Of a stretch of 64,000 nucleotides of DNA, positions 21,600 to 46,104 are shown piece after piece. Below the pieces are notes generated by a model. The model was not told the origin of the DNA, searched no databases, and was given only the letters and a program-made list of their open reading frames with translations. Both the position numbers and the translations under genes were made by a program. Source of the DNA: a virus; IMG/VR virus record IMGVR_UViG_3300029358_000325, positions 1 to 64,000 of that record. One strand, 5' to 3'. The stretch's first letter is position 1. Each line of letters opens with the position of its first letter.

Positions 21600-21620
21600 G
21601 TATCCTGTGTTATATAGTTA
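21600..21620 (-). promoter_or_regulatory. Conserved 21-bp motif, copy 1. It is about 15 nt upstream of the ligase ATG, followed by AAGGAGG.
   Basis: The coding strand reads TAACTATATAACACAGGATAC and contains a -10-like TATAAC. Confidence 0.45.
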
Positions 21621-21630
21621 TAGCTAATAA

Positions 21631-21666
21631 AGAAAGGCTTGTCGTTACGAGCAAGCCATTTCTTTC
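21631..21666 (-). terminator. Imperfect hairpin between motif copies 2 and 1.
   Basis: AGAAAGGCTTG-TCGTTACGAG-CAAGCCATTTCTT. Confidence 0.3.
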
Positions 21667-21668
21667 CC

Positions 21669-21689
21669 GTATCCTGTATTATATAGTTA
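21669..21689 (-). promoter_or_regulatory. Conserved 21-bp motif, copy 2. It lies in tandem, 48 bp upstream of copy 1.
   Basis: The coding strand reads TAACTATATAATACAGGATAC, with a perfect TATAAT. Confidence 0.4.
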
Positions 21690-21727
21690 AAGAGAGAATT
21701 TTAAGCCTCCGGGATGGAGACTTTTTA

Positions 21728-21748
21728 TAACTATATTATACAGGATAC
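21728..21748 (+). promoter_or_regulatory. Conserved 21-bp motif, copy 3, in inverted orientation. It forms a 21-bp inverted repeat with copy 2.
   Basis: The plus strand reads TAACTATATTATACAGGATAC, 12 nt after the helicase stop. Confidence 0.4.
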
Positions 21749-21759
21749 TCACATAATTG

Positions 21760-24700
21760 TCAATGCTTTTCTGCAAATTCTTTCCGTAAAAATTCCTTCA
21801 GGAACGTCCGCTTGTATGGCACTCTCGAAGTCTTTACAGCCCGATCAAGAGCATGAGTTTCGGCGCAAATCACACAATACTTCTTGGCACGAGTGATGGC
21901 CGTATAGAGCCATTCTCTCGTCAGCATCAAGTATGCAGAGTTGTCCATACCAACAATCACATACGGAGCCTCACTGCCCTGCAGTTTATGACAACTCAAA
22001 GCATAAGCAAGTTCAAGTGTTGCCCAGATGTTATTCCCACCAAAGTAATGAGGAATAAATATCGTGCCCCACTGGTCAAAATCAACCAGAATAAAGCTAT
22101 TCTCAATCTTTCTGATAATGCCACGGTTTCCGTTGAACACCGGACACTTCTCTTCCTTTTTCTTTGTCTTGAGATTATATGTATGAAGTTCGTAGTTGTT
22201 CTTGTTGATAATAACCTGATCGCCCTCACGCAGAGTGTACACTCTATCCTTGCCATCACCATAGATTGTGACCTTTGCTTCTGCTTGACCACTACTCGGA
22301 TTCACGATTTCCTGAATAGCATTATTGACTTCATAGGTGCAAATACTGCCACGAAGCTTCTGTGGAAGTACAATCTGAATCTTCGCACTATCATTCCCCA
22401 CCTTATTATATAAGGTACGGTACTGATTGATGATATGGTTGAACGACTCACTTGCATCCTTATAGATATCAAGCTCCAAATCACGAAGTTCACCACGAAT
22501 CTCACTACCAGCCCAGCCATAAGGCACCAACTGCGTAGCGTTACGAACCTTAATGCTTTCCGTGATAATTGCAGACTTAGCTGCCTGACGATGGATCTTA
22601 GTCAAACGAGCCACAGGAACAACCTTAGATGCAAGCATATCCTTGAAGATGTTACACATACCAATACTCTCAAGCTGGCCGTCATCACCAATCATGATGA
22701 ATCGCTTGCCGGTCTCGATTGCCTGAATCAAGTCATAGAATAACTGAGCTCCAACCATAGAGGTCTCATCCAGAATAATAATGTCTTCTTCAAGAGGATT
22801 GTCCTTGTTATGGATGAAACCACCATTCTCGATGTCGTAGCCAAGAAGACGGTGAATGGTCTTTCCATCCTGACCAGTAATCTCCTGCATACGAGCTGCG
22901 GCACGACCAGAAAGTGCAGTCTGAGCAAAAGACTTACCACGAAGAACCTTTAAAACACCAGCGACAACGGTACTTTTACCAGTGTTGCCTGTGACACAAA
23001 TTCTTCCATTATATCTTGTCAGAAACATATGAGACGGAACAGTAAAACAATACTTATATCCATCGCTTGAACGAACAATATCAATATCGCTTTTACTGCC
23101 TTTTGTCATAAGAGAAACTTTTCCATTCGAGTGTTGCACAATATGAACATTATACTCTGTGACAATTTTACCGTGCCGTTCAATATTTGATTCATATACA
23201 ACAGAACGATAACCACAAGAAGAAAATGCGAACTGAATAAAATCTGCCGTTTCTTTAATCAGTGTACTAAAATCTTTCCGTCTCCCCTCTTTCACATGAC
23301 CGTCCCAATTTAGAATCTCATCGCAAATCACCTCTAGCTGATGATGATTACAGTTATACCAATACGAAGTAAATCTTTTTTCTTTTCTTGGAGCGTAAAA
23401 GACAAAGTTCGAATATTCCAAGTCTTTTGGATTCCACTGATGCTCATCAAAGTATCTACCACTTTCCGAAAGAAGTCTTCTCATGCGAAGTTTCTTTCGC
23501 TCTTTTTTTACGTTTACTCTACACCAAGCTGATTTATGATCCTTCAAAAACGATCCATCGCAAATAACAGCACACATTAGTCTAATATCAGCATCGCTCA
23601 AATCGATTCCTGGGCCATCATAATTAAACGTTGTTATAAAATGTCCGTTAAACCCAGACTTTCGTTTAACATTTCTTTGATACAACTCCCACATTGGGAT
23701 TTTAGCTAAATTGTTTTTACTGGTCAAGTAAACAACATTATGCTCTGCACTCAATAGTTGATTGATACTACCCGACTTGTTTTTCATGTGATATAGATAT
23801 TCACATTTGAATTTTACATATTTCTCAGGCTCAACAAGCGTTGTAGTCCCATTTTCATTATATTGAAGAACTTTGTCGCCCTTAACATAATCTTTTATTT
23901 TTTTCCATTGGACACCATTAAAGAACTCCATCTCTGCATCGAGGCATCCGCCGTAGCCTGTTAAGATACAGACGTTGCTAGAGCATACCTTTTTAATAGC
24001 ATCTCTTTGCTCCTCAGTATACTCGATGCCAAGCGCATTCCCGGCTTCATTGATTGCAGCATCCATGTTTCGACCAATCGGCTCAACAGGTGCATCCGCC
24101 AGTCGCTTGATTTCCTTTGCGATTTTATCTTCAAGATTCCACACTCTAGTTAAAGCAAATTCCTGACGGTCATCACTCCACCAAAGCGTTTCACGGACAT
24201 CATGTAAATGGAAAAGTGCCCTTTTGATGACTTCTTGATCACCCTCGTTCAAATCAAGTTCCTTAATACAGCTATTGATTGTCTGGTTTGCCGGGATAAT
24301 AGAGTTACCTTCTTCGGCACGAGCGGCAAGAAAGTGCATGACGTAAGCTTCAATTCTGAATTGCGAATTGTGCTTTAAGCCCATATTCAAAGCAAGAGCG
24401 TCAGCTTTTTTCCAGCCGATACCATACGCATCATCGATCAGGACGTAAGGGTTCTCCTCAATTTTTCTTACCAGAGTGTCTGCACCGTGATACTGACGAA
24501 CAAGCTTTTCAATAGCATTGGAAGTCAAACCGTACTCAATCAGTTTCGTGTACGCTTCACTGTTGTCAATGTTGTTTTCAAAAGATTCAATAATCTTTTG
24601 CGCTCGACCTTCCGTAATGCCGCTAACAGTACAAAGAGACTTGACATCACCGTTCTTGACGATTTCATACGGGTTCTCAAATGCTTCATAAAGCAGCTCA

Positions 24701-25053
24701 AACTGATGGTCAGTCAAGATAAAACGGAGAAAGCTTTTTTGTTCTTCCGGGTCAGTAATCTCTTGAAACTCATTCATATAGATGATTTTGTACTGATCAC
24801 CAAACTTTTCATGATGAACATACTCACCACAGAACGAATAAGTTTTATTCATATCGAGGCTAGGAACGTTGCCTTTTAGCCGGAGGTCGCTGTATCGGCT
24901 CATGATAGGATTCCCCTGCTTGACTTTTACCACCTCGGCAGAGAAAGTGGCGAAGCCGCCGGGCTCCACCTCCCTCCCATCTTTCGGATAAAAGACTCGT
25001 TTTATCCTGATGTAGCAACGAATCATATTTTCATTAAATTTCTTATCTGCCAC
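21760..25053 (-). CDS. recD: RecD-like superfamily 1 DNA helicase, interrupted by a 321-aa intein. GTG start.
   Basis: After conceptual splicing, Walker A reads ILTGYGG|TGKSTVV. Further motifs: ILDETSMV (DExx), MIGDDGQLESIG, and CHKLQGSEAPYVIV (motif VI). Confidence 0.8.
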   Translation of the reverse strand: MADKKFNENMIRCYIRIKRVFYPKDGREVEPGGFATFSAEVVKVKQGNPIMSRYSDLRLKGNVPSLDMNKTYSFCGEYVHHEKFGDQYKIIYMNEFQEITDPEEQKSFLRFILTDHQFELLYEAFENPYEIVKNGDVKSLCTVSGITEGRAQKIIESFENNIDNSEAYTKLIEYGLTSNAIEKLVRQYHGADTLVRKIEENPYVLIDDAYGIGWKKADALALNMGLKHNSQFRIEAYVMHFLAARAEEGNSIIPANQTINSCIKELDLNEGDQEVIKRALFHLHDVRETLWWSDDRQEFALTRVWNLEDKIAKEIKRLADAPVEPIGRNMDAAINEAGNALGIEYTEEQRDAIKKVCSSNVCILTGYGGCLDAEMEFFNGVQWKKIKDYVKGDKVLQYNENGTTTLVEPEKYVKFKCEYLYHMKNKSGSINQLLSAEHNVVYLTSKNNLAKIPMWELYQRNVKRKSGFNGHFITTFNYDGPGIDLSDADIRLMCAVICDGSFLKDHKSAWCRVNVKKERKKLRMRRLLSESGRYFDEHQWNPKDLEYSNFVFYAPRKEKRFTSYWYNCNHHQLEVICDEILNWDGHVKEGRRKDFSTLIKETADFIQFAFSSCGYRSVVYESNIERHGKIVTEYNVHIVQHSNGKVSLMTKGSKSDIDIVRSSDGYKYCFTVPSHMFLTRYNGRICVTGNTGKSTVVAGVLKVLRGKSFAQTALSGRAAARMQEITGQDGKTIHRLLGYDIENGGFIHNKDNPLEEDIIILDETSMVGAQLFYDLIQAIETGKRFIMIGDDGQLESIGMCNIFKDMLASKVVPVARLTKIHRQAAKSAIITESIKVRNATQLVPYGWAGSEIRGELRDLELDIYKDASESFNHIINQYRTLYNKVGNDSAKIQIVLPQKLRGSICTYEVNNAIQEIVNPSSGQAEAKVTIYGDGKDRVYTLREGDQVIINKNNYELHTYNLKTKKKEEKCPVFNGNRGIIRKIENSFILVDFDQWGTIFIPHYFGGNNIWATLELAYALSCHKLQGSEAPYVIVGMDNSAYLMLTREWLYTAITRAKKYCVICAETHALDRAVKTSRVPYKRTFLKEFLRKEFAEKH
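22984..23946 (-). other. Intein with a LAGLIDADG-type homing endonuclease, inserted in the helicase P-loop. Spans aa 370-690 of the precursor.
   Basis: It begins with Cys, right after GYGG. Internal LMCAVICDGS and ILNWDGHV are LAGLIDADG-like. It ends ...VTGN, followed by Thr. The flanking exteins rejoin to a perfect GYGGTGKST Walker A. Confidence 0.65.
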
Positions 25054-25065
25054 TTTATAACCCTC

Positions 25066-28000
25066 TTACGCTATCTCTCTATCATGTAGCCACTGCTTGT
25101 AAGGTTTGAAGTCGTTTGCAATAACGTGTGATTCATCTTCCTTCTTTCCAAGCACAGCTACCTGACTTCCCTTTACAATCAAATCCTGATAATCTGACAA
25201 GATTCTCGGCCATACTGTCAACTCAATGATACCATCGCCAGAATACAGATTCACAAACGCAAACTGCATACCAGTCTTTGTTTTCTTCTTTTGAATCTTT
25301 GCGATAATACCAACCAGTACACAGGAGTCACCAGTTTCAAGCTCAGAGAAATCCTTAATGTATTCGTATGCCTTTTCAAACGGATTCTTATCGATAATAA
25401 ACGTCTGCAACGTCTGGAACTCCCAGAATTGCTCGTCCTTCAAATACTTCTCTGACTGCTCGGCCATGTACGCTTCCTTTTTCTTGAGTTTTTCAGTTTC
25501 ATGTACGACACGGCGCTTTTCATTATAGATTCGTAGGACGGTTTCTTTATCAACCTTCTTACCAACCTTATAATGCTCTGTATCAATATCCCACTTACTC
25601 AGCAAAACTGCCTTGGTAGGAAGTGTACTGACTGGTTTAAACTCAGATTGTTCCAAACCGCTGGCAATGTACTTTTCCAAGAATATTCGTTTGTTTTTTG
25701 TAGGAATCGCACCGGATTTGACCAACGCAATGATCTGCGCTTTCGTTGCACGAACACGACTCGTGAAATCATCAAGTCCCTTAAATTTTCCATTCCTATC
25801 TCGTTCTGCAATGATAGTCTCAGCAAGTGTATTGCCAATACCACCGATAGCAGACAAGCCAAATAGGATTTTACCATTTGACACAGTAAAATCCATGCCG
25901 GAACGATTGATACTCGGAGGAAGAATCTGAATATCAAAGCTGCGTGCGTCCACCATAATCTTATTGACCTTACCGACCTTTGCTTTATTCAGGTTCAGCA
26001 TAGCCTTAAAGAACGCAAGCGGATGATGGGCTTTCAAGTATGCGGTCTGAAGACAGATGACGGCGTATGCTTGAGAATGACTAGCGTTGAAGCCGTAGCC
26101 GCCCTTCGTTGACAACTCGTTACAAATATACTCGGCGGTTGCTTTATCGTATCCATTTGCAAGAATTTCATCGTGAAGAAGTTCTACCTCTTCCTTGACC
26201 TTCTCAGGTTTCTTCTTTGCTAAGCACTTACGCATTCTATCAGCACCAGCATCGCTTCGGCCACCAAAGACCTTTGTGAGCTTCATACTCTGTTCCTGAT
26301 AGATGTTCACGCCATAGGTGCTGCGGAAAATTGGTTCCATATCAGGATGGAAATAATGAATGTGTTCTGGATGATACTTGCAATCAACGTATGTAGGAAT
26401 AGACGGCATTGCGTCAGGACGATAAAGAGCAATCAGAGCAGACAGCTCTTCAATCGACCTCGGCTGAAGCTGTGCAACCAGATCTTTCATGCCGGACGAT
26501 TCAATCTGAAATAGATTGTCTGTCCGGCCAGAACAAATCAAATCATAGGATGCCTTGTCATTTTCAAACTCAGGATTGTTAATGTCAATTTCCCAGTCTG
26601 GAATATTGTCCTCACGCTTTGCCTCATCAATAGCCACAAGCGATGCAACGCCAAGAATATCAAACTTAACAAGTCCAATTTTCTCGTCCATCACCTTATC
26701 AACAGAGATAACGTGTTCTCCATCGGCACCATGCCGGATACCGATATACTCATAATAAGGATGTCGACAAACAATAACACCGCCAGCATGGATACCATAC
26801 CCTCGTGGGCGACCATTGATATGACTTGCAATATCAAGTAGTTCCTTATATTTTGGATTCTCGGCCACTTCCGGGTTGGCTTCAAGACAATCCTTCCATG
26901 TCTTCTGAACGAACTTCTCACTGATTTTTCTTATCTCAGCATACGGAAAACCGAGCACCTTACCAACATCCTGAATCGAGGTGACCGGAGTGGTATACAC
27001 GATATTCATAACCTGAACTACTCGATCTTCACCGTACTTTTGTGTCAGATACTCAACAACCTTGGCACGGTCACTGACATCTACATCAACGTCGGGAAGA
27101 TCTTTTCGTTCAATGGTAAGGAATCGTCCGAAATCAAGTTCGTACTTGATAGAGTCAAGTTGTGTAATACTAATCAGGTAACACACAAGTGAGCCAGCGG
27201 CAGAGCCACGACCAGGGCCAACAATAACATCATTTTTCTTACACCAGTTGATATAGTCAACCAGAATCAAAAAGTAGTCACAGAAGTCTTTCTTCTCAAT
27301 AACAAACAACTCGTCATCAACACGTTTGTGATAGATTTTTTGTTTTTCTACATCAAACTTTTCAATACCGCGCTTCTTCCATCCCTCTTTTACAAGGTCT
27401 TTCAGGTAAGCTGCTGAGTTGGAATACTGTGGAGGAATCTCGATTTTGGGAAGTTCAGGTTCGTGCCAAGGCATATCCACATAATCACATAGGTCAGCAA
27501 TCTCATCGGTATTGTTGATACACCATTCTGCCGCATCATATCCAATCTGACTATCAAGAACTTCATGTTGCTCTTTACGAGACATGAAATAACATCCTTC
27601 ATAGATTTCTGCGGCAGTTTCCGTATCATGTGCGATACGAAGAAAATAGTCTTGATAATAAAGATCCTCTTTGGTAGCAGCATGAACATCGTTTGTGACG
27701 ACTACTTTTGTATGAGTATCATTTGCCAACCGCATGATTTTTTTATTATATTTTGCTTGTTCACTATTTGCGTGAGCCTGAACTTCAAGATAATAATGAG
27801 GAAACAAGTTCTTATACTCTTGAAGCAGTTTGACACAAGTGTCATAATCATCCGTTTTGGATAGCCTACTTGCCAAACAAGCAGACAGGATAATCAAATT
27901 ATTCGTATCTTCCTTAGCGATATCCTCTTTTGTGATACGAGGACGGCTATAAAAGCCATGAAGATGACCGAGTGTAGACAAGCGATTAACAGCCTGACGG

Positions 28001-28281
28001 CCAGCCTCATTCTTTGCGATGATAATCAAGTGCCAGTATTTACTGTTCTTGTCCTTTACTTCCCTATCCTCGCACTCGTATGCCTCAATACCATAAAGAA
28101 GTTTTACATTCGGATACTTGTCCTTCAGTTCTGAGTAGTACGGCCAGCTTGTTACCTCACCATGCTCTGTAATAGCAACGGCTTTTAAACCGAGTTCAGA
28201 TGCTCTTTTTAGATTTTCTTCAGGAGAAGAGTACCCATCTAGCAGACTGTAATTCGAGTGCGTGTGTAGACTACTTGACAT
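25066..28281 (-). CDS. dnaE: DNA polymerase III alpha subunit (DnaE-type).
   Basis: 1071 aa. PHP domain HTHSNYSLLDG. Pol III alpha core GRGSAAGSLVCYLISITQLDSIKYELDFGRFL...LPDVDVDV. AAAGGAG SD. Confidence 0.85.
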   Translation of the reverse strand: MSSSLHTHSNYSLLDGYSSPEENLKRASELGLKAVAITEHGEVTSWPYYSELKDKYPNVKLLYGIEAYECEDREVKDKNSKYWHLIIIAKNEAGRQAVNRLSTLGHLHGFYSRPRITKEDIAKEDTNNLIILSACLASRLSKTDDYDTCVKLLQEYKNLFPHYYLEVQAHANSEQAKYNKKIMRLANDTHTKVVVTNDVHAATKEDLYYQDYFLRIAHDTETAAEIYEGCYFMSRKEQHEVLDSQIGYDAAEWCINNTDEIADLCDYVDMPWHEPELPKIEIPPQYSNSAAYLKDLVKEGWKKRGIEKFDVEKQKIYHKRVDDELFVIEKKDFCDYFLILVDYINWCKKNDVIVGPGRGSAAGSLVCYLISITQLDSIKYELDFGRFLTIERKDLPDVDVDVSDRAKVVEYLTQKYGEDRVVQVMNIVYTTPVTSIQDVGKVLGFPYAEIRKISEKFVQKTWKDCLEANPEVAENPKYKELLDIASHINGRPRGYGIHAGGVIVCRHPYYEYIGIRHGADGEHVISVDKVMDEKIGLVKFDILGVASLVAIDEAKREDNIPDWEIDINNPEFENDKASYDLICSGRTDNLFQIESSGMKDLVAQLQPRSIEELSALIALYRPDAMPSIPTYVDCKYHPEHIHYFHPDMEPIFRSTYGVNIYQEQSMKLTKVFGGRSDAGADRMRKCLAKKKPEKVKEEVELLHDEILANGYDKATAEYICNELSTKGGYGFNASHSQAYAVICLQTAYLKAHHPLAFFKAMLNLNKAKVGKVNKIMVDARSFDIQILPPSINRSGMDFTVSNGKILFGLSAIGGIGNTLAETIIAERDRNGKFKGLDDFTSRVRATKAQIIALVKSGAIPTKNKRIFLEKYIASGLEQSEFKPVSTLPTKAVLLSKWDIDTEHYKVGKKVDKETVLRIYNEKRRVVHETEKLKKKEAYMAEQSEKYLKDEQFWEFQTLQTFIIDKNPFEKAYEYIKDFSELETGDSCVLVGIIAKIQKKKTKTGMQFAFVNLYSGDGIIELTVWPRILSDYQDLIVKGSQVAVLGKKEDESHVIANDFKPYKQWLHDREIA

Positions 28282-28283
28282 TC

Positions 28284-29039
28284 TTACTCCTTTCTCTTAT
28301 CTCCAAACTTAATAATATCGTCAAAAAGCATCACATAGTCATCGGTGTACTTGTTACCATGAAAATGGCCGAAGTACCAGAATGGTTTACAATCGTTAGG
28401 ATAGCATTCGTATATATTATCAAAGAATATTTCAGTTGACTGGTCTACTGTGCTTTGATCAATACCACCGATAAACAATTCAGTTGGAATGAACCGGAAT
28501 GGACAGGTATGCGTGAGCATAACATCAATGTCATCGATTTGAGGGTCATGTGTAATATTCCAGATTTTTTTCTTAGTCTTCTCATTCGGCTGTTCGTCCG
28601 GCCACCAATTATATCCCCACTCTAGCCGATAATACTTGTCCACAGAATATGCTCCGCCGCAAACAAGACAGTTTAATACTTCCCTATCAGCAAGAATTTG
28701 ATAGACTTCGCCATCAATAGCAAAATACTGATTTGGATAATGTGGGTCATGCCACACCTTACCACAAATATCTCCATTGATTTCCTTTATCTTATAACCA
28801 TCCTTACGAGATGGGCGGCGCTCGTGATTTCCATGAATACAAAACAGATTCGCAGGAATATCTGCGGCGATAGTCTTAATGCTCCATTCGCGCGGGTCGT
28901 CCTTGCCGTAGTAGTTTAAACCGACATCGCCAAGACAGATAATCCAATCATTCTTTCCAAGATTGTGTTCATGGCAAGACTTTTCTAATTCTAAAAACCG
29001 ATTAAAATCACCATGAATATCACCTGTAATGTAAACCAT
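28284..29039 (-). CDS. Calcineurin-like metallophosphoesterase.
   Basis: Motifs YITGDIHGD, CLGDVGLNYYG, IHGNHE and GHFHG. Confidence 0.6.
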   Translation of the reverse strand: MVYITGDIHGDFNRFLELEKSCHEHNLGKNDWIICLGDVGLNYYGKDDPREWSIKTIAADIPANLFCIHGNHERRPSRKDGYKIKEINGDICGKVWHDPHYPNQYFAIDGEVYQILADREVLNCLVCGGAYSVDKYYRLEWGYNWWPDEQPNEKTKKKIWNITHDPQIDDIDVMLTHTCPFRFIPTELFIGGIDQSTVDQSTEIFFDNIYECYPNDCKPFWYFGHFHGNKYTDDYVMLFDDIIKFGDKRKE

Positions 29040-29939: not shown

Positions 29940-29940
29940 A

Positions 29941-36478: not shown

Positions 36479-36499
36479 GTATCCTGTTTAATATAGCTA
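36479..36499 (-). promoter_or_regulatory. Conserved 21-bp motif, copy 4. It lies 16 nt upstream of the ATG of the 36170-36463 gene, with AAGGAG between.
   Basis: The coding strand reads TAGCTATATTAAACAGGATAC. Confidence 0.45.
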
Positions 36500-36513
36500 A
36501 TGGTTAAAAAATT

Positions 36514-37614: not shown

Positions 37615-37759
37615 ATCAAGTCTCCTTTATGTAATTTTGTTTCATTGATAATCACTTATGTTTCTTTTTATTGTCTCGAATCAATTCATGCACTATTCAT
37701 TTTATGTATTATCCTCCGTCTGGCTTATTGATGGCTTATATTTCATACGGCACTCACCG

Positions 37760-39186
37760 TTAGAAATTGTCCTTTAATGGATTATGTACAAACATTGCGC
37801 CGAGCACTATTGGGAGCCGTTCTGAACACTCAGGACACAAATCAAAACTCAAAAGCGAGCCATCAAGTTGGCTACCATAAGAGTATTGATGCTCAAAACT
37901 GATTCCCTGCTCGCTACCTATCGGCTTGATTTCACGACCACACCAGTTACATATTTTCTTACATGTGTTCATACGGCATCACCCCATTTTTAATATTCTC
38001 TATCACGGAACATCTTAGATTGAGCACGAGTCAATCTGTTGTTCCGACCATACTTAGGTCTGAATGCGGACTGTAGCTTGTTGTTTGCATATTCGAGGTC
38101 ACTCTCCAGAATCTTCGCAGCTTCTTCAATGTAATCTCGAATGGCACAATACTGGTCGCTATTGATACAATGCGTCTTTAGATAATCAAGCATATCGACT
38201 GCCTGATTTTTCAAAAGAAGTGCATCCTCAAGCTGGGTTTTACGTCGTTGGAAGAAATCTATATTCAACCCTGCACCTCCCCATTCTGCAGTCTTTCAAG
38301 CGTGGGACGAATCGTTCTCTCCCAATGCCTTACAAATCGCCAATCAAGTAATTGTCCGCAACGTGGACAGAAGTTATCAAGATTTGATAGTGTGTAATAA
38401 CAAACCGGGCACTCATAATGTTTATAAACGTCATCGAGAAGAGGCTCTTTGTAATCTGTTCTAAACTCATAAAGTTCAGCTTTTGAAAGAATGATTTCGA
38501 GAGCCTTTACTAAATGCTCACGAGGGCACCACTGGTCTCCTTCTTTACCAAGACGAATTTGTTTCTCTACAATTTCCTTCGCTTGGTCAAAAGTCATGTT
38601 CTCAATCTCTTTTTTCTTTGCGTGCATCCAATCTTTCATAACACACCACTTTCAGCAAATGCATAATTGTGCTTTGCGTTCTTATCCATCCACACACTCC
38701 AATCCATCTTGTGATGACACTCTGGACATTTCGGTTCAAGCTTCTCTAGCTTCGTTACACAGAACGGACAGAGATATGTGCTCTTTTCCTTCTGGAAGAT
38801 AGGACTTGCCGGAAGACTCAAGGAACCGGAATCAATGGTTGCATTGATAGGAATTTTGCTGTTCATCGTACCACCTCTTGTTTGAATTAGCCTTTTATGA
38901 GATTTTCTTATTACGGAATATGAGTTGCTTTGTCAACGGGCTTTTCCATTTCCTTCATAATCCGCTTGTGTTCTTCGATTGTCATGTTGTTCGGGAAGAA
39001 ACACCTGTCAACCATTTCAAACGGCTTAATATAATGGTCAAGAACATCTCGTGCTTCTTTTCGTGCCTTTTCAGCACACATCTCGATATATTCTTCTTCG
39101 GTCATGTTGTAATCGGTGACACAATCGACCACCGAAGAAAACCGACACAGCAAACCGTTAGGCTGTCTTGCAATAAAAGCTCCCAT
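37760..39186 (-). other. Five small ORFs (70-124 aa). At least three are Zn-ribbon proteins.
   Basis: CNWCG...CPEC (37760-37972), CPVC...CPRCG (38265-38639), CPFC...CPEC (38636-38866). Confidence 0.3.
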
Positions 39187-39188
39187 TT

Positions 39189-40658
39189 TTATCCTCTTTG
39201 CTTTTCTGGAAAATGCTTCTTAGTTACTGCAACGCAAAAGCTATCAATTTCTGACCCCCAAATGGCAGTACCTTCACCATATGTGCTTTGAAATACTAAC
39301 GGAAAGCCGCCGATCCCATCGAAGAGGCTACCAAGAGTAGGATTCTCACCGATATACGGTTTCATCTTCTGAAAAATCCAATACCATTGCGGTAATGCGA
39401 TTGAATTGCCGAGTGCCTTATAACGAACTGCGTCAGAAGTTTTATGCTTCTTTTCGTTCTCATCAATCCAGTCACCGATATCAGTCCATCCGTCAGGGAA
39501 ACCCTGTAACCGTTCATCCTCCAAAGGAGTCAAGCGGCGAACAATCCATCGTAGATTCTTCGTTTCCTTCTCTGCAATCAGGTCAGTAGCGTCCTTATAA
39601 TCACGAGATTTCATCGTGCTGGCGTGTTCACTTTCCTTGTACTCACCAATGCGTTGCATTGCAAAGGCTTTCTTTTCAACGACCAGCGGCATATTATTAC
39701 CGCCCGTTCCCCACTGAGCAGTACAAGTCGGACTTGTATCACCCTGCTGAGTGTATCGAGCGTCCTGACTGTGACTCTCAAATACCACCGGCGAAATCTT
39801 TTGTTTTAAATTATGTAAGGATGGATTTTCTGCCAAGCAAATTAGTGTCTGGTCTTGCAACGTAGAAATCGTTGCGCTCAATTCAGTTTGAACTAGAGCG
39901 CCTTTACCGCCACCTTCACATCCAGAGCGGATTTTTAGAGTGTAGGCTGCAGGTTCTGCGAATCGAGCCGAAGTCTCTCGATGGTCTGACTCCAATACTC
40001 GTCCAATTCCTTCTCTTCCAGACCTTCTTGTTCCTTCACTTTCTGCACCACCTGTGACAGAGTTCCTGGATTCCACCATTCGATCATATCCAGCAACGCT
40101 TGCTTCAGGAGTTCGGGCAAAGGTTTTCCACGCCGGGATGCTCTCACAAGAATCCCCTGACATGCTCGTGCGCTCAAATAGAATTTCTGAGGCACGTTGT
40201 CCTCCAAAATCCATGACAAGCGCGATTCTCTGGCGGCGCTGGGCGACTCCCCAGTATTTAGCGTCGAACAATCTCCATGCAAGAGACCATCCATTACCGG
40301 AAATCGCTCCAGATTTTGCCCACTTTCCGTTCTTTCCTGAAGGTCGAGGAATTGAAACATCTGGCTCGACAATGCGTGCAAATCTTTCCAACACACATCT
40401 GAAGTCTTCACCTTTGCTTGAGCTGAAAGCACCTCTGACATTTTCCCAGATTGCGAATTTTGGATATTCTCCATTAGTGGCCTCCCTCATTTCTGTAATC
40501 ACACGAATCATTTCAAGGAACAATCCAGAGCGTTCACCAGCCAAACCTTCACGTTTACCGGCCTGACTCAAATCTTGGCATGGACTGCCTCCTGTGATAC
40601 AGGAAACCGGTTCAATCTGCCCTCCATGAAGTTGTGTGATATCTCCGTAATGCTTCAG
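39189..40658 (-). CDS. dcm: DNA (cytosine-5)-methyltransferase with circularly permuted motif order. Motifs III through X come first, then I and II. The start is non-canonical, either a CTG or a frameshift.
   Basis: In protein order: GDITQ (motif III), GGSPCQDLSQAGKREG (motif IV), ENVRG (motif VI), QRRQRI (motif VIII), GNSIALP (motif X), then MKPYIGENPTLGSLFDGIGGF (motif I) and GSEIDSFCVAVTKKHF (motif II) at the C-terminus. The frame is open from a stop at 40662-40664. The first in-frame start is a CTG at 40656-40658, 7 nt after an AGGAGG SD. An out-of-frame ATG lies at 40665. Confidence 0.55.
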   Translation of the reverse strand: MKHYGDITQLHGGQIEPVSCITGGSPCQDLSQAGKREGLAGERSGLFLEMIRVITEMREATNGEYPKFAIWENVRGAFSSSKGEDFRCVLERFARIVEPDVSIPRPSGKNGKWAKSGAISGNGWSLAWRLFDAKYWGVAQRRQRIALVMDFGGQRASEILFERTSMSGDSCESIPAWKTFARTPEASVAGYDRMVESRNSVTGGAESEGTRRSGREGIGRVLESDHRETSARFAEPAAYTLKIRSGCEGGGKGALVQTELSATISTLQDQTLICLAENPSLHNLKQKISPVVFESHSQDARYTQQGDTSPTCTAQWGTGGNNMPLVVEKKAFAMQRIGEYKESEHASTMKSRDYKDATDLIAEKETKNLRWIVRRLTPLEDERLQGFPDGWTDIGDWIDENEKKHKTSDAVRYKALGNSIALPQWYWIFQKMKPYIGENPTLGSLFDGIGGFPLVFQSTYGEGTAIWGSEIDSFCVAVTKKHFPEKQRG

Positions 40659-40676
40659 TTTTCATTCCTCCTTTTA

Positions 40677-40697
40677 GTATCCTGTGTTATATAGCTA
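40677..40697 (-). promoter_or_regulatory. Conserved 21-bp motif, copy 5. It lies directly upstream of the SD and start region of the permuted MTase.
   Basis: The coding strand reads TAGCTATATAACACAGGATAC, followed by TAAAAGGAGG. Confidence 0.45.
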
Positions 40698-40800
40698 AAC
40701 CCCTAAAAATGAGCGAAAAATAATAGACGTATTAACGTCATATTATTCATTCACTTATAAAACAAAAGTTCTAGCAGATTTTATGTATGCCCTATCGGGC

Positions 40801-40876
40801 TGGTGGAATAGTCGAGATTTGAACTCGTGTCTGACAATTATAAGTTGTCGGCTCTAACCAGCTGAGCTACTATTCC
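40801..40876 (-). tRNA. tRNA-Ile, anticodon UAU.
   Basis: On the reverse complement, the acceptor stem is GGAATAG/CTATTCC, the D stem GCTC/GAGC, and the anticodon stem GACAA/TTGTC with loop CTTATAA. T loop TTCAAAT, discriminator A, CCA encoded. Confidence 0.65.
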
Positions 40877-40902
40877 ATATAAACGCCAACTTTCGTCGGC
40901 GC

Positions 40903-40975
40903 GATGCCAGTGGAGGGATCGAACCTCATCTCTCGGTGTTTCCGAGCGCTTTTACCATTAAGCTATCCAGCCGTA
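40903..40975 (-). pseudogene. Degenerate tRNA-like element. D and T arms are intact; the anticodon loop and acceptor pairing are aberrant.
   Basis: The reverse complement has D stem GCTT/AAGC with loop AATGGTAA and a T arm GAGGTTCGATCCCTC. The anticodon stem CTCGG/CCGAG encloses only 5 nt (AAACA). No 7-bp acceptor pairing can be drawn and no CCA is encoded. Confidence 0.35.
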
Positions 40976-41103
40976 TACCTCAGAATTTAATTCCTACTAT
41001 CAAAGCTACGTCGCGTTCCAATATGATCACTCTTGGCAACCATGTCGTAACATATAGGTTCCTTTCGGCTCTGAGCAACCGGTGCAGCGTCAGGGGCTGC
41101 GTG

Positions 41104-41179
41104 TGGAGCGACTGACGGGGGACGATCTCGCAACATTCAGATTGGAAATCTGACGCTCTACCAATTGAACTACAGTCGC
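41104..41179 (-). tRNA. tRNA-Gly, anticodon UCC.
   Basis: Acceptor GCGACTG/CAGTCGC, D arm TAGTTCAATTGGTAGAGC, and a perfect anticodon stem TCAGA/TCTGA with loop TTTCCAA. Discriminator U, CCA encoded. The T loop is non-canonical (ATCGTCC). Confidence 0.6.
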
Positions 41180-41360
41180 ATAAGAACCAACCTAGCAACT
41201 GGCATCACTAGGCTGGGATACTCGGCTTACAAAGGCACGCTGCACTCTTTCGGGCGAGCCGAGAATAACGCACATGAAAAATTTCGTTAGCCCATTTCGG
41301 GGTGGTATCTCGCACAGGCGCAGCCGGATTTGACCGCTAAAAATCCTACCCATACGAGAT

Positions 41361-41436
41361 TGGAGCAACCAACGGGACTCGAACCCGCCCTCTCTGCTTG
41401 GAAGGCAGATGTGCTAACCACTAACACCATAGCTGC
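41361..41436 (-). tRNA. tRNA-Gly, anticodon UCC (second, divergent copy).
   Basis: Acceptor GCAGCTA/TGGTTGC with G-U pairs. Anticodon stem TCTGC/GCAGA with loop CTTCCAA. T arm GCGGGTTCGAGTCCCGT. Discriminator U, CCA encoded. Confidence 0.55.
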
Positions 41437-41543
41437 ACAATCACCCAGCTTACAAAGCACTACTGCACCATCACTGGCGAGCCGGGAATAATAGTGGCAG
41501 TCAAAGGAGATCAACAAAACGGTACGCAACCATTCTATGACCG

Positions 41544-41625
41544 TGGTGCGGATAGTGGGCATCGAACCCACACGCCGAAGCACCAGATCCTAAATCTGGC
41601 GTGTCTGCCACTCCACCATATCCGC
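41544..41625 (-). tRNA. tRNA-Leu, anticodon UAG (type II).
   Basis: Acceptor GCGGATA/TATCCGC. Anticodon stem CCAGA/TCTGG with loop TTTAGGA. Long variable arm with a GC-TTCG-GC hairpin. T arm GTGGGTTCGATGCCCAC. Discriminator A, CCA encoded. Confidence 0.7.
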
Positions 41626-41630
41626 ATAAA

Positions 41631-41701
41631 TTGCGCCAACAGGGGTCGAACCTGTGATGGAGGAGTCAAAGTCCTCTGCCTTACCGCTTGGCGATGGCGC
41701 A
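41631..41701 (-). tRNA. tRNA-Gln, anticodon UUG.
   Basis: U1-A72 acceptor TGCGCCA/TGGCGCA. D arm TCGCCAAGCGGTAAGGCA, as in bacterial tRNA-Gln. Anticodon stem GAGGA/TCCTC with loop CTTTGAC. T arm ACAGGTTCGACCCCTGT. No CCA encoded. Confidence 0.7.
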
Positions 41702-41788
41702 TCATATACCCAGCTTACTACGTCACACTGCTCCGTTTCCAGAGAGCTGGGAATAATGTGAATGAAAATTCTACATACCCTTTCGGAC

Positions 41789-41864
41789 TGGCCTGAGCGA
41801 CAAGATTTGAACTTGCGGTCCCCTGTTCCCAAAACAGGTGCGATACCAACTTCGCTACGCCCAG
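41789..41864 (-). tRNA. tRNA-Pro, anticodon UGG.
   Basis: C1-G72 acceptor CTGGGCG/CGCTCAG. D stem GCGA/TCGC. Anticodon stem CCTGT/ACAGG with loop TTTGGGA. T loop TTCAAAT. CCA encoded. Confidence 0.7.
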
Positions 41865-41871
41865 ATATAAA

Positions 41872-41954
41872 TGCGCCCGGCGGGACTTGAACCCGCACGC
41901 CATCTCTGGCAGAAGATCTTAAGTCTCCTGTGTCTGCGATTCCACCACGGGCGC
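41872..41954 (-). tRNA. tRNA-Leu, anticodon UAA (type II).
   Basis: Acceptor GCGCCCG/CGGGCGC. Anticodon stem GGAGA/TCTTC with loop CTTAAGA. Long variable arm GCCAGAGATGGC. T arm GCGGGTTCAAGTCCCGC. Discriminator A, no CCA encoded. Confidence 0.65.
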
Positions 41955-42154
41955 ATATAAAAGAAGATCAGAAACAGCCAACCATTCGTTTTACATTCTA
42001 GTTTTCTGACGAACCGAAGAGTATTTATCCGATAGCTAGTCGGCTTACACCTTATTTCTCTTCTTGTCTGGCTTGACATCCTTTACCGGTATGACGTCTT
42101 TCCGGTCGCCAATGTACGGCCAATCCCCGAACGAGCTAGAACAACTGATCTTCA

Positions 42155-42239
42155 TGGTAGGGATAATCGGATTTGAACCGATACGTCTTTCGACACTTGA
42201 GTTTGAATCAAGCGTGGCTGCCAATTTCACCATATCCCC
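42155..42239 (-). tRNA. tRNA-Leu, anticodon CAA (type II).
   Basis: Acceptor GGGGATA/TATCCCT. Anticodon stem CTTGA/TCAAG with loop TTCAAAC. Long variable arm GTGTCGAAAGACGT. T arm ATCGGTTCAAATCCGAT. Discriminator A, CCA encoded. Confidence 0.65.
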
Positions 42240-42356
42240 ATATCGCCGGTCTTTCCCGGCTGTCAGCCCCGCGCAGGGCATTTTCGGAGGAAGAAATACC
42301 ACGATATTTCGTTAATTATTTTGACGAAAATCACGATAAAATGTCTATTTTTTAAT

Positions 42357-44576
42357 TTAGCTCTTCTGCTGACTTGCGTAGAACTCATTCCGCAGCTGAA
42401 TAATACCCTTCTTGCAGAAAGACTCTTGATCTTTCTCTCGTTGTTCACGCATCCAACCATAGAACAGGTTATCCTCGGCAGTAAACAACTTTGCGGTATT
42501 TTCATAATAGCCACGTTTTTGAACGCTCTGCATGACACCACGCAAGAACTTCCAGTGCTTATAATACGGAAGCTTCAGCTTAAACATGAAATTATTGCTG
42601 TCTCGCAAAACAAAGCCTTCAACGTGTTCAAAACCATGATGCAGATAGTTCTCGTTCATGACTTCTTCGTACCAAGGATAGAATTCACTCCAGTTCTCAA
42701 AGGTTTTAACCTTCTCCTTAATCTGCAGATGACACTTCTCGGCTACACGCTTCAAATCATCATAATCCATTACACTGAAATTCATATCATTTGCAATAAT
42801 ATCCAGCAAAACAATGTGCGGTTTCTTATATTCGATGATATGTGCATCATTCACAGGATCAATCACCTCGAAGATGATGGAGCCATTCTCTTTTGCAACT
42901 TCTTTCAGATTCTTACGATCTTCATCAGAAGTCGTATCCATGAGAATCTTTCGGAACATATCTGCAAAAGGCCCATCAGGAGTGGATTTACTTGCAATGA
43001 ACAGACCATCCTGTTCTGCATCATACGAAATGATACCAAGAAATCCGTTCTCTTTTAGATATGCAGTCACCGGGAACTTCAAAGTGTTCTGTAGGTTTCC
43101 AATTCTCGTTTCATTCCGCTCATCAACCGCAAAGAACTTATCATAGCTTCGAGCTACAATCTTATTCGTCTTTGTGTTAATGAACAACCCTCTTGCTTTG
43201 GTAGAAACCTCATCCCAGTGCTTCTTATAAAATGCTTCACGAGAGAAGTTGAAAGAAGAAATATCTCCGAATCGCTTCTCAAACACATATTTGCTTTGAC
43301 GCATCTTACTAACAAGTTCTGCGTTATCGAACTCAGTTTTCATTTCAACGGCAGTTTCAGTCTTTGGCTCCTCTTTTCGGAATACATCATTCTTGGTTTC
43401 TACGCATTTGATAGGCTGACCGTGTTCAAGCTCCACACAACGAAGATATCCACCAAACTCGATTTTGCCTTCAAGATTGTAGCACCGATGACCCATATCA
43501 ATAGGAACATCCTGTACATTTCGATGGCCGAAGATCTGAATATAGCTATCCGGCATCGACTTTTCCCAAGACTCAGCCACGGTCAGTATATCAGGATAGC
43601 GGCCTACGCCTTTAATCATCTGATCCGCAGACACGAACGGAAGAAAATAAGGAAGATAGCTCAGACCACCGTGACTTACGAAATACCGCTTACCATCATA
43701 CTCAAAGTAGACACACTGGCCGACTCTGGAATAGATCTTACGAGCAGTGTTCTTGTCAATACCGGCTTTAAAGAGCTGCGGACTAGTGTAGTTTGCAAAC
43801 TCTTCACTTTGAACCGGTTTATCATGCCCCCACTTGTTCAGCCAATGCTCGTGGTTCCCTTCCAAAAGGATCACATTCTTGCGGTTGTTATTTACAACAT
43901 CACACAAGAACTTGAATACCTCAACGTTTTCGATGCCACGATCGAGATAATCACCAACGAAGATATAAAGCTCGTCGTCCTTCATCTCACCAAGGTATTC
44001 ACTCAAGCAGGTATAGCAGCCATGAATATCACCGATGATATGTATCTTTTTCCACTGGTTAAAGTCATTCGGGCAGTAGTTCAAATCGGACATCACATCC
44101 GTAGTAGAAGGAAGAACTGTCACGCCAGAAGGAACTTTTTGAGTAGCAAACCGAGCGTACATCTTATCAATAGCCGCTTCAGGAACTCGCTTTAGCCATT
44201 CTCTCTGAGCGTTTCTTCGTTTGCATTCCTCGATCGGAAGGTCCGTCATATCAATAACATACATCCGATAACGATACTGTTTTGCAAGATTCTTATAACA
44301 ATTCATTTCGACCGTCTTGGAATTCGTTGCATCAATCACAGTAAACTCGCCATGGCTCATCCGCACCTCAAGCAGTTTGAAAAGCATCTCCCATACAACA
44401 TCATCATTCTGCTGAGAAATCTCCATCTGCCCATCAGGTGTTTCCTGTGCGCTCTGGCACATAAGGCGAAGTGTATCAGCACTCAATACGTACTGCTCAA
44501 GATTATGCTCTTTAATATAGGTGGACTTCCCGCAACCGGGTGCTCCACGGAACAGTAAAAGTGTTCTCATCTGCAT
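42357..44576 (-). CDS. pnkP: Pnkp-like trifunctional RNA repair enzyme: 5'-OH polynucleotide kinase, metallophosphoesterase-type 2',3'-phosphatase, and a ligase-like nucleotidyltransferase.
   Basis: N-terminal P-loop kinase LLLFRGAPGCGKSTYIKEH. Central calcineurin-like domain with IIGDIHGCY, FVGDYLDRGIENVE, LLEGNHE and FGHRN. The C-terminal domain has a K-x-x-G motif (STKARGLFINTKTNKIVARSYDKFF). The domain order matches bacterial Pnkp. It is preceded by a terminator, the 21-bp motif and an SD. Confidence 0.6.
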   Translation of the reverse strand: MQMRTLLLFRGAPGCGKSTYIKEHNLEQYVLSADTLRLMCQSAQETPDGQMEISQQNDDVVWEMLFKLLEVRMSHGEFTVIDATNSKTVEMNCYKNLAKQYRYRMYVIDMTDLPIEECKRRNAQREWLKRVPEAAIDKMYARFATQKVPSGVTVLPSTTDVMSDLNYCPNDFNQWKKIHIIGDIHGCYTCLSEYLGEMKDDELYIFVGDYLDRGIENVEVFKFLCDVVNNNRKNVILLEGNHEHWLNKWGHDKPVQSEEFANYTSPQLFKAGIDKNTARKIYSRVGQCVYFEYDGKRYFVSHGGLSYLPYFLPFVSADQMIKGVGRYPDILTVAESWEKSMPDSYIQIFGHRNVQDVPIDMGHRCYNLEGKIEFGGYLRCVELEHGQPIKCVETKNDVFRKEEPKTETAVEMKTEFDNAELVSKMRQSKYVFEKRFGDISSFNFSREAFYKKHWDEVSTKARGLFINTKTNKIVARSYDKFFAVDERNETRIGNLQNTLKFPVTAYLKENGFLGIISYDAEQDGLFIASKSTPDGPFADMFRKILMDTTSDEDRKNLKEVAKENGSIIFEVIDPVNDAHIIEYKKPHIVLLDIIANDMNFSVMDYDDLKRVAEKCHLQIKEKVKTFENWSEFYPWYEEVMNENYLHHGFEHVEGFVLRDSNNFMFKLKLPYYKHWKFLRGVMQSVQKRGYYENTAKLFTAEDNLFYGWMREQREKDQESFCKKGIIQLRNEFYASQQKS

Positions 44577-44591
44577 CTCCCTTTCTAATAG

Positions 44592-44612
44592 GTATCCTGT
44601 GTTATATAGTTA
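44592..44612 (-). promoter_or_regulatory. Conserved 21-bp motif, copy 6. It sits between a hairpin terminator and the Pnkp SD-ATG.
   Basis: The coding strand reads TAACTATATAACACAGGATAC, then CTATTAGAAAGGGAGATGCAGATG. Confidence 0.45.
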
Positions 44613-44625
44613 GCATGTTAAAATG

Positions 44626-44650
44626 AAGGGGCCGAAGCCCCCTGTTTTTA
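44626..44650 (-). terminator. Rho-independent-type hairpin terminator. It could act in both directions.
   Basis: GGGGC-CGAA-GCCCC stem-loop flanked by T-runs on both strands. Immediately after the stop of 44648-45574. Confidence 0.5.
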
Positions 44651-45574
44651 ATTTTCATGGAAATATTCAACCCAACCTTTATATCCTTGCCGGAAACTAA
44701 GATAGGCAACTTTACTGCACTTTCTTCCGATAATGTCCGCAAGAGGACCTTTACCATTTCCGAAACTAAGTTCTGCAAGATTAAATTTTGGATGAGTTTT
44801 ACAGTAGTTATAAACCTTGATATACTCACAATTTCTGGCTAAATATCTTTGATCTAAGGTTTTTGAATGATGCCTTTTTTCGAGGATATCGTTCAACCTC
44901 GAAAAATAGACATGAATTGAAATTATAGACGTCTTTGGATCACTGTTTACACCGGGTTTATCCTTCGTTTTGCGTAGGATATAATCGCCATTCATGACAT
45001 AAAATGTTCTATAACCGCTCTTATTGGGGGCATCATACTGTTTCATCTCGTAACATTGCTTGATAATATCCATTAACCTTGCGTCAACATCAGTCTTATC
45101 AAGAACGGTATTAGATTCAAAATCCACATCGTTAATTGTTAGATTAGAAATCTCATCGGAAGTAAGACCAATCCAGTACAAAACAGCAATTACGTTCATA
45201 CGAATCTGATATGGCTCTTCGTACTTATTTAAGAAGTCAACAAATTCGTCAACCGACGCAAAATAACTGTCATTGTACATATCATCTGCGCTTACATCGC
45301 TCTCTGAAAAGTCAGCCAGATCATACATGCTTGTTTCGTTTTCACTTTTGATGTAGCCTGTGATTATTGACTTCACATTTTTAAACGAACGACTCGAGTT
45401 CACCCAATTATATTTGGCAAACATCTTTACGAAATCATCTTTTGTGAAGTCAAACAACTCATACCCACGCTCGGCCTCGTAATCCATGACGTGACGCATC
45501 GTCGATGCAACAAACTCACCGCTTCTATCAGAATACTTTTCGGCAAAAGCTTTGATTTTTTCTTCAGTAAGCAT
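44648..45574 (-). CDS. Hypothetical protein with weak resemblance to a degenerate tyrosine-recombinase fold.
   Basis: 308 aa. IRMNVIAVLYWIGLTSDEISNLTINDVDF resembles recombinase box I but lacks the catalytic Arg. Followed by a hairpin terminator. Confidence 0.25.
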   Translation of the reverse strand: MLTEEKIKAFAEKYSDRSGEFVASTMRHVMDYEAERGYELFDFTKDDFVKMFAKYNWVNSSRSFKNVKSIITGYIKSENETSMYDLADFSESDVSADDMYNDSYFASVDEFVDFLNKYEEPYQIRMNVIAVLYWIGLTSDEISNLTINDVDFESNTVLDKTDVDARLMDIIKQCYEMKQYDAPNKSGYRTFYVMNGDYILRKTKDKPGVNSDPKTSIISIHVYFSRLNDILEKRHHSKTLDQRYLARNCEYIKVYNYCKTHPKFNLAELSFGNGKGPLADIIGRKCSKVAYLSFRQGYKGWVEYFHEN

Positions 45575-45627
45575 AGTGGCACACTCCTTCTTATTATATG
45601 TAGTGTACCATTAAACCTTATAAAAAA

Positions 45628-46047
45628 TCAAGCAAATGCGGCAAAATTCTGAAATTCCATGGTATGTTGTACGCCGCTCAGGAATGCTGCAAGCAAAAAC
45701 GGTTCATCCTTGCATCTTGCCATTGCGATCATATTCATCTGACGCTCCGACAAGACACCAAGTTTTTTAATGAACTGTCCTTTGTTAAGTGTATCAGTCT
45801 CTTCACATAGAACGATACTATCAACCTCTAGGAAATCACAATCTTCCTTTGAGAGTAGAACATGAACCGGAGAGCGCTTGTATATTCTGGAAGACAACGG
45901 ATTCCCTTTAATTGTTGGACTAAAGAAGTTGCGCTTATTGTTGCTCGTCACAACGAACGGTCGAATACCGCGCTGCTGATGACCTGTCGCATTGGATAGA
46001 TCAACCAACCAAACCTCTCCGACCTTTGGGTCAATATTGTTGTCCAT
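45628..46047 (-). CDS. mazF: MazF/PemK-family endoribonuclease (toxin-like). No recognisable antitoxin partner.
   Basis: KVGEVWLVDLSNATGHQQRGIRPFVVTSNN fits the MazF/PemK N-terminal signature (G-x-I/V-x-x-V-D/F ... G-x-E-Q-x-G-x-R-P-x-V-V). GAGGAG SD. Confidence 0.55.
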   Translation of the reverse strand: MDNNIDPKVGEVWLVDLSNATGHQQRGIRPFVVTSNNKRNFFSPTIKGNPLSSRIYKRSPVHVLLSKEDCDFLEVDSIVLCEETDTLNKGQFIKKLGVLSERQMNMIAMARCKDEPFLLAAFLSGVQHTMEFQNFAAFA

Positions 46048-46083
46048 AGTCTTTCTCCTCTATAATAGTGTAGCTCCGTTCCA

Positions 46084-46104
46084 TAGCTATATTATACAGG
46101 ATAC
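46084..46104 (+). promoter_or_regulatory. Conserved 21-bp motif, copy 7, in inverted orientation. It lies 37 nt upstream of the mazF-like ATG but points the opposite way.
   Basis: The plus strand reads TAGCTATATTATACAGGATAC. Confidence 0.35.

Follow-up and report, generated by a model that had tools for sequence, protein, structure and literature searches.

A 21-bp intergenic box in a family of gut prophages is probably the operator of an integrase-fold master repressor

What is the function of a long, non-palindromic box that recurs between the genes of a phage? The question is raised by the first 64,000 nucleotides of the IMG/VR virus record IMGVR_UViG_3300029358_000325 (positions 1 to 64,000, called the window below), in which a 21-bp box is present in seven copies. 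An initial annotation, made from the sequence alone, favoured a phage-specific middle or late promoter for this box and mentioned an operator as the alternative. The results described here indicate that the motif is real and functional. It is probably the operator of a prophage master repressor of the SPβ type, with the 308-aa product of a gene in the window as the presumed binder. The system is most likely a further example of a recently described one, and not a new kind of promoter. We infer the link between protein and box from analogy and adjacency; repression and the role of the copies lying in gene orientation are inferred likewise.

The box is bipartite, as it consists of TARCTA, six variable AT-rich bases and ACAGGATAC. 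No internal dyad is present either in the window copies or in the site classes of the relatives, and the box is non-palindromic. The pattern TARCTATATWAHACAGGATAC was searched on both strands, and exactly seven matches were found in the 64-kb window. The shuffled window sequence gave no match in 100 shuffles, and no extra copy appeared in the 64 kb when up to three mismatches were allowed. According to the GC skew and the map of open reading frames (ORFs), the genes are directed along the - strand. Five copies lie on this strand (21600, 21669, 36479, 40677 and 44592) and are called forward copies, and two lie on the + strand (21728 and 46084) and are called reversed copies. The seven copies span 24.5 kb. 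All of them are wholly intergenic, although the ORFs of the - strand occupy 92% of the window. The initial annotation had listed these seven copies and had proposed a regular-expression search as a check. Both the number and the coordinates were confirmed by this search on the 64 kb.

The two reversed copies lie inside promoters of the sigma-A type. The copy at 46084..46104 (+), with the gene-strand sequence GTATCCTGTATAATATAGCTA, overlaps the promoter TTGACT-N17-TATAAT at 46091..46119 (-) from the 3' half of its spacer through the -10 hexamer to the start region. This promoter is located upstream of a MazF-like gene and the repressor gene, and is predicted to drive both. The copy at 21728..21748 (+) reads GTATCCTGTATAATATAGTTA on the gene strand, and covers the spacer, the -10 hexamer and the start region of the consensus promoter TTGACA-N17-TATAAT at 21735..21763 (-), of which the -35 hexamer contains the stop codon of a RecD2-like gene. 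Exactly 9 nt separate the -35 hexamer (TTGACA at 21763 and TTGACT at 46119) from the reversed box, so both sites share the register -35-N9-GTATCCTG-TATAAT-ATAGYTA. The two promoters score 12/12 and 11/12 against the sigma-A consensus. When the 64 kb was searched for TTGACW-N16-18-TATAAT, just two sites were found against 0.06 expected, and these are the two reversed copies. No other host-type (sigma-A/sigma-70) promoter of the window ranks above these two. The initial annotation had suggested that the inverted copies drive antisense transcription. They are not antisense elements, because their TTGACW-N17-TATAAT promoters point in the direction of the genes.

The same arrangement is observed in the relatives. 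The box was found in more than 119 stretches of gut viral contigs of about 70-140 kb, in about 13 orthologous site classes that share the 21 bp only, their flanks being unrelated. Across the site classes, TARCTA and ACAGGATAC are near-invariant, and the six central bases are AT-rich, variable and the least conserved. The information content is 1.8-1.9 bits per position in the box and 0.7-1.3 bits in the variable flanks, and the 9-nt spacer beside the box is almost unconstrained. The -35 hexamers lie outside the repeat, at the fixed distance of 9 bp, in three independent site classes. TTGACA or TTGACT is present in all 63 unique promoter-embedded contexts, and the -10 hexamer (TATAAT in 43, TATTAT in 14 and TATTCT in 6) always has A at position 2 and T at position 6. 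For the promoter of the repressor operon, the -35 and -10 hexamers are conserved in 27 unique relatives. Family-wide, the central hexamer fits TAnnnT in 100% of the promoter-embedded copies but in 42% of the non-promoter copies, whichever way the box is read. This difference indicates that the variable centre of the box is tuned to a -10 hexamer only where a -35 hexamer is present. The initial annotation had read the central hexamer as -10-like; the TATAAC of the forward copies lacks the final T.

The proposed binder of the box is encoded at 44648..45574 (-). Its 308-aa product shows a weak match to the Pfam family MrpR_N_CB, which is matched by 27 of 40 members of the repressor family. The single-sequence search against the PDB and a shallow-profile hhalign comparison with YopR were non-significant, pairwise BLASTP against YopR gave E = 0.87, and tblastn of the repressor against phages gave no match. 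Remote relatives (320-345 aa) were gathered by exhaustive profile search and added to the family profile, and the homology to YopR and MrpR is detectable only after this addition. The family profile gave full-length matches of 2.1e-13 to YopR (8bj6) and 8.3e-13 to MrpR (8a0a), followed by XerA with 2.5e-3, and hhalign against SPβ YopR gave a probability of 97.7%. The AlphaFold model is of moderate quality, with a predicted local distance difference test score (pLDDT) of 62, and is good for residues 1-175. In the Foldseek search against the PDB, the top four entries were DNA-bound phi3T SroF, the SroF-Sar complex, YopR and MrpR, and Cre and integrases were located lower. In place of the first catalytic arginine of the tyrosine recombinases, another residue is present (GLTSDE here, compared with GLRISE in the Tn1549 integrase and GLAHSE in YopR), and the C-terminal tyrosine Y298 is invariant. 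According to these profile and fold comparisons, the 308-aa protein is a homologue of the master repressor MrpR/YopR/SroF.

The first gene of the repressor operon, at 45628..46047 (-), encodes a MazF/PemK-like protein of 139 aa (Pfam PemK_toxin, 2e-19). It lies directly upstream of the repressor gene, co-transcription of the two is predicted, and no obvious antitoxin gene is present in the operon. The MazF-like gene is located downstream of its promoter copy in 29/29 relatives, and the orientation of the flanked segment is constant.

The promoter overlap, the repressor homology and the conservation of the box fit the operator and the regulator-binding sites that the initial annotation had offered as alternatives. 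If the 308-aa protein behaves like MrpR, a single molecule of it would clamp around the DNA and recognise a box that is long and asymmetric. At the boxed sigma-A promoters, the bound repressor would exclude the host RNA polymerase, since the box lies over the spacer, the -10 hexamer and the start site. The boxed promoter of the repressor operon would then provide autoregulation, and the boxed promoter ahead of the ligase gene would keep an early gene silent in lysogeny.

The genes that follow the boxes in the relatives are consistent with such a regulon. They encode the ligase, the MazF-like protein and repressor, Pnkp, the methyltransferase, yorE-like and yorG-like products, several unknown proteins and a 930-aa protein. 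The last is a YonO-like two-barrel RNA polymerase (Pfam RdRP, 9e-15; BLASTP against SPβ YonO, 2e-25, with DFDGD aligned). In 80/80 related loci, a forward box is located 30 nt (29 nt in one) before the start of the YonO-like gene, and these loci include a contig of which the repressor is identical to that of the window. On this contig, the YonO-like gene lies about 31 kb beyond the repressor gene. The YonO-like polymerases are single-subunit proteins of 923-930 aa with an ADFDGD motif, 25% identical to SPβ YonO over 512 aa; their genes lie outside the window, on L126-L205 (e.g. L149, 3001-5769).

The five forward copies are located ahead of genes. The copy at 21600..21620 (-) ends 13 nt before the start of the ATP-dependent DNA ligase gene. 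The copy at 36479..36499 (-) ends 15 nt before a 97-aa gene, which heads the replication module at the position of SPβ yorE. The copy at 40677..40697 (-) ends 18 nt before the start of the C5 methyltransferase gene, CTG 40658 (GTG in relatives), and the copy at 44592..44612 (-), located between the terminator of the repressor operon and Pnkp, ends 15 or 21 nt before the Pnkp start codon. The remaining copy, 21669..21689 (-), lies 38 bp downstream of the promoter copy 21728 and is its inverted partner; it is 9 nt ahead of a mini-ORF of four codons and 82 nt ahead of the ligase ATG. The placement at gene starts noticed in the initial annotation thus holds for the ligase, the 97-aa gene, the methyltransferase and Pnkp (13-21 nt), but not for the copy at 21669. 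A Shine-Dalgarno sequence is present 3-11 nt downstream of every forward copy, and no -35 hexamer was recognised at any of the five. Terminator-like hairpins are located at 21636..21657 (-), between the copies 21600 and 21669, at 40726..40739 (-), after the tRNA array, and at 44627..44643 (-), at the end of the repressor operon. One copy had been annotated as following a terminator hairpin. The hairpin is seen, but at least three of the five forward copies (21600, 40677 and 44592) follow such a structure.

The mini-ORF at 21640-21668 (-), ATG GCT TGC TCG TAA, is located between the two forward boxes, where it shares sequence with the 5' arm of the terminator hairpin. It has a weak Shine-Dalgarno sequence and is also conserved in the relatives. 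It could function as an attenuator-like leader, or its presence could be coincidental.

In three unrelated site classes, a reversed copy is combined with a forward one to give an inverted pair, and the gap between the two is fixed at 37-40 bp. Depending on the class, a small hairpin, a terminator or a promoter is located in the gap. On the most economical reading, the forward copies would be further repressor sites. Such a copy could act as a second operator downstream of a boxed promoter, as in the inverted pairs with 38-40 bp between them. It could be a roadblock to read-through behind the terminator of the constitutively needed repressor operon. It could also be an operator over a weak promoter; a weak promoter with no -35 hexamer may be present at the forward copies.

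The loci with divergent repressors bear on the specificity of the box. The box is missing from the loci of repressors that are 37% and 26% identical, with the gene order kept; the contig of the 37%-identical repressor is 1.3 kb long, so that there the absence is read at the orthologous position only. In this locus, a terminator and then Pnkp follow the repressor gene. The contig L124, with the 26%-identical repressor, shows the same arrangement of PemK-like gene (9506-9922), repressor, terminator and small gene, so the pairing of MazF and repressor is kept there. It continues with YorF, AAA_24, YorH, DnaB and Pol III alpha, the Yor names being Pfam families named after SPβ proteins. The missing box at these loci fits a box that is specific to its own repressor. 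On L124, a tandem pair of the 14-bp ATRCTAACAATCAT is located at 11073-11111, which is the orthologous position, downstream of the repressor terminator and ahead of the yorE-like gene. This element may be the box of the L124 repressor; its match at the L124 promoter has three mismatches and is not above chance.

Several results weigh against an operator of an MrpR-like repressor. The C-terminal half of the structure model is of poor quality (pLDDT 62, template-modelling score about 0.28). The box has no sequence in common with SPBRE, the repressor element of SPβ, or with the phi3T box, and it is absent from SPβ; since the boxes of SPβ and phi3T also differ from each other, however, this dissimilarity does not decide membership. 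In SPβ, all SPBRE copies are oriented along the genes, whereas five of the seven copies here oppose the promoter-embedded polarity. The forward copies 36479, 40677 and 44592 have no recognisable promoter to be repressed. The repressor alleles, which are 81-100% identical, show no co-variation with the box variants; as these variants occur sporadically within genomes, the comparison speaks neither for nor against the operator. The search of L124 for an alternative repeated box demonstrated no clear one.

Two alternatives give the forward copies a promoter function. In the first, the forward box would serve as promoter either to the YonO-like polymerase or to a phage sigma factor or activator, and transcripts would start in ACAGGATAC, about 15-30 nt before the genes. 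The forward copies are squeezed between a terminator and a ribosome-binding site, with no -35 hexamer and no space that could take a further promoter; a YonO-like RNA polymerase is encoded in the phage family, and the box at its gene mostly fits TAnnnT in the centre. The box precedes the polymerase gene itself, however, as well as early replication and repair genes, and this position is the reason for which the polymerase-promoter explanation was downgraded. Forrest et al. are said to have found in 2017 that YonO transcribes late genes in SPβ. A promoter of the T7 or YonO type is also expected to keep a single orientation along the genes, whereas two of the seven window copies, together with the 63 contexts in relatives, are reversed and in exact register with sigma-A promoters. 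Moreover, TAnnnT occurs in fewer than half of the non-promoter copies, and the centre is the least conserved part. We therefore consider this promoter unlikely. The phage-specific middle or late promoter favoured in the initial annotation meets the same difficulties, namely reversed copies within sigma-A promoters, a poorly kept hexamer and the early type of the genes served.

In the second alternative, the role of the box depends on its polarity. In one polarity it would be an operator over a host-type promoter, and in the other the core of a promoter with no -35 hexamer, which needs either a phage factor or the bound integrase-fold protein itself. The inverted pairs 37-40 bp apart would be a switch that depends on the cooperation of two 'monomeric' repressors, with a terminator or promoter between them. 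The MazF-like gene, which in this scheme shares its transcript with the repressor gene in every case, would be a built-in counterpart of the host MazEF link of the arbitrium phages. Such a dual role, with the pair switch and the MazF link included, is also unlikely.

It is quite improbable that another phage or host protein binds the box, which would leave it an operator. Many small unannotated ORFs are present in the window and could supply such a protein. However, a non-palindromic box of 21 bp suits a monomeric clamp of the SroF kind and not the usual dimeric helix-turn-helix repressors. The boxes also bracket the operon of the MrpR-like protein and match the SPβ regulon, and the box vanishes where the repressor is divergent.

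An RNA element is very improbable. The copies would then form long hairpins that are processed, for instance by RNase III, or they would be sites for the MazF-like nuclease in 5' leaders. A read-through transcript of 21580-21770 folds into a 21-bp stem (z = -5.5), the forward copies lie in probable 5' leaders, and the MazF-like gene and RNA-repair genes (Pnkp and RlaP) are nearby. The differences between the partners of the inverted pairs, however, are one-sided and uncompensated and affect up to 6/21 positions. Selection for an RNA hairpin or a cruciform is thus disfavoured, and the hairpin idea was rejected. In addition, a transcript initiated at a boxed sigma-A promoter would have its 5' end at the reversed box or downstream of it, and hence lack one arm of the stem. 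The forward copies 36479, 40677 and 44592 are unpaired, and the distance from box to start codon varies from 13 to 45 nt across the relatives. The Rfam scan detected tRNAs only and no family matching the box element.

It is hardly credible that the copies are recombination sites, or the terminal inverted repeats of an element that moves or inverts, and that a tyrosine recombinase acts on them: the inverted copies 46084 and 44592 do flank a 1.5-kb segment with a recombinase-fold gene, other copies flank 38-bp segments, and true integrase-family genes are present at 319-1539 and 51747-52586, but the box does not show the usual inverted arms on either side of a 6-8 bp spacer, the first catalytic arginine is missing from the protein encoded between the copies, a 38-bp segment is too short to invert, and the inverton or transposon idea was rejected on the constant orientation in 29/29 relatives and the -35 hexamer outside the repeat at a fixed distance.

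The operator of the MrpR-like repressor therefore stays the preferred reading, and the surroundings of the boxes can be described with it in mind. The region is a phage replication and repair block, which encodes the ATP-dependent ligase, the RecD2-like helicase, Pol III alpha, RecJ, a primase-like protein, an AAA_24 protein, the C5 methyltransferase and Pnkp, which has an RNA-ligase domain; eight tRNA genes come after Pnkp. The tRNA array at 40801-42239 (-), located between the Pnkp/RNA-ligase gene and the methyltransferase box, contains Ile-TAT, two Gly-TCC, Leu-TAG, Gln-TTG, Pro-TGG, Leu-TAA and Leu-CAA, and explains a local peak in GC content. The array, RlaP (47241-47993) and the MazF-like gene form a cluster related to RNA damage and repair. 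In the C5 methyltransferase gene at 39189-40658 (-), the frame is open upstream of the listed TTG start as far as CTG 40658. The protein starts with the region of the catalytic PCQ motif, and its first 65 residues match the Pfam positions 74-131. These features agree with the circularly permuted methyltransferase of the initial annotation.

A third strong host-type promoter, TTGACG-N16-TATAAT (11/12), is located at 46506-46535 (-) and carries no box. It precedes a 108-aa gene at 46139-46465 (-), which has no Pfam match and lies just upstream of the promoter of the repressor operon. This gene is a candidate for a gene that is expressed in lysogeny or separately regulated, such as an antirepressor or Cro-like gene.

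A Tn916-type tyrosine integrase of 406 aa is encoded at 319-1539 (-), at the edge of the window, and a second integrase-family protein of 279 aa at 51747-52586 (-). Homologues of the repressor are present on contigs of up to 784 kb, which is a bacterial size. The integrase genes and these contigs point to an integrated prophage. A near-identity search of 24 kb against GenBank phages gave two short fragments only. Nucleotide-metabolism genes at 1741-2568, 13251-15542 and 17283-17987 (-) encode a FolD-like methylenetetrahydrofolate dehydrogenase/cyclohydrolase, the anaerobic ribonucleotide reductase NrdD and ThyX, respectively. From its sequence, this gene set implies an anaerobic host.

If the box is the operator, the system extends to a large and abundant family of human gut prophages of about 130 kb. 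It would have a defined box of 21 bp, conserved at both ends and free in its AT-rich centre, and a predicted regulon that comprises the repressor operon, the genes of replication and repair and the gene of the YonO-like polymerase. The box would then be a handle for locating units of early transcription and for predicting to which immunity groups uncultured gut prophages belong.

The box can be compared with four known systems. T7-type promoters have one orientation and serve genes other than the polymerase gene. The present box resembles them as a conserved element of about 21-23 bp located directly ahead of genes and often after terminators, but two of its copies lie in reverse orientation within host-type promoters, and the polymerase gene itself has the box ahead of it. 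The operators of lambda CI are 17-bp pseudo-palindromes, which are bound by dimers and clustered at two loci. The likeness to CI lies in the overlap of the boxes with early promoters and with the repressor's own promoter; here, however, the box is asymmetric and dispersed, and the presumed binder has the integrase fold.

To our knowledge, an integrase-fold monomeric repressor with a dispersed operator has so far been described for Bacillus SPβ-like phages only. SroF of phi3T is a monomer that encircles the DNA and reads 24 of the 26 bp of an asymmetric box at distant sites (bioRxiv 10.1101/2025.11.27.690993). It is the best structural match to the model of the present repressor (PDB 9rd5 and 9rgl; Sar is the antirepressor), and a monomer reading nearly every base would explain a motif of 21 bp that is asymmetric and AT-centred. 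The 26-bp box of phi3T is rich in A-tracts (CAGTAATTTTATTTTTATTCTTAATG), whereas GC-containing ends flank an AT-rich centre here.

MrpR is the master repressor of SPβ, and ChAP-seq showed ten peaks at promoters bearing SPBRE (PMC10516654). The SPBRE sites were extracted from the SPβ genome, and their register was compared. At SPβ yonP, yorZ, yorE, yorM and yosX, the core is arranged as TAGACA-N9-AATATGTA-TATAAT, which is the register of the promoter-embedded copies here. At yopV, yopM and yonX, the core is found directly upstream of the ribosome-binding site, like the forward copies. Both systems share a repressor of the integrase fold, with catalysis lost in the MrpR/YopR/SroF family and probably also here, a long box that is not palindromic and recurs at about ten scattered intergenic sites, and a box over the 3' half of the spacer and the -10 hexamer of sigma-A promoters. 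The regulons are also parallel, with sites at the repressor operon (SPβ yopM), at the head of the replication module of the yorE-yorL kind, after the polymerase block (yorM) and before the YonO-like gene (yonP-yonO).

The differences from SPβ are as follows. The boxes are unrelated, TARCTA-N6-ACAGGATAC here and ACAAAtAATATGTATA in SPβ, and the repressor here is recognisable by profile or fold only. The host here is an uncultured gut bacterium with strong Shine-Dalgarno sites and not Bacillus. In phi3T and SPβ, the arbitrium system and YopM act via the host MazEF (PMC10769878, PMC10516654), and by analogy the MazF that this phage carries in its repressor operon may provide a related link. Two features are novel in comparison with SPβ: both polarities of the box are used, with inverted pairs at the fixed gap of 37-40 bp, and a two-gene operon, in which the MazF-like gene is predicted to be co-transcribed with the repressor, takes the place of yopMNOPQR.

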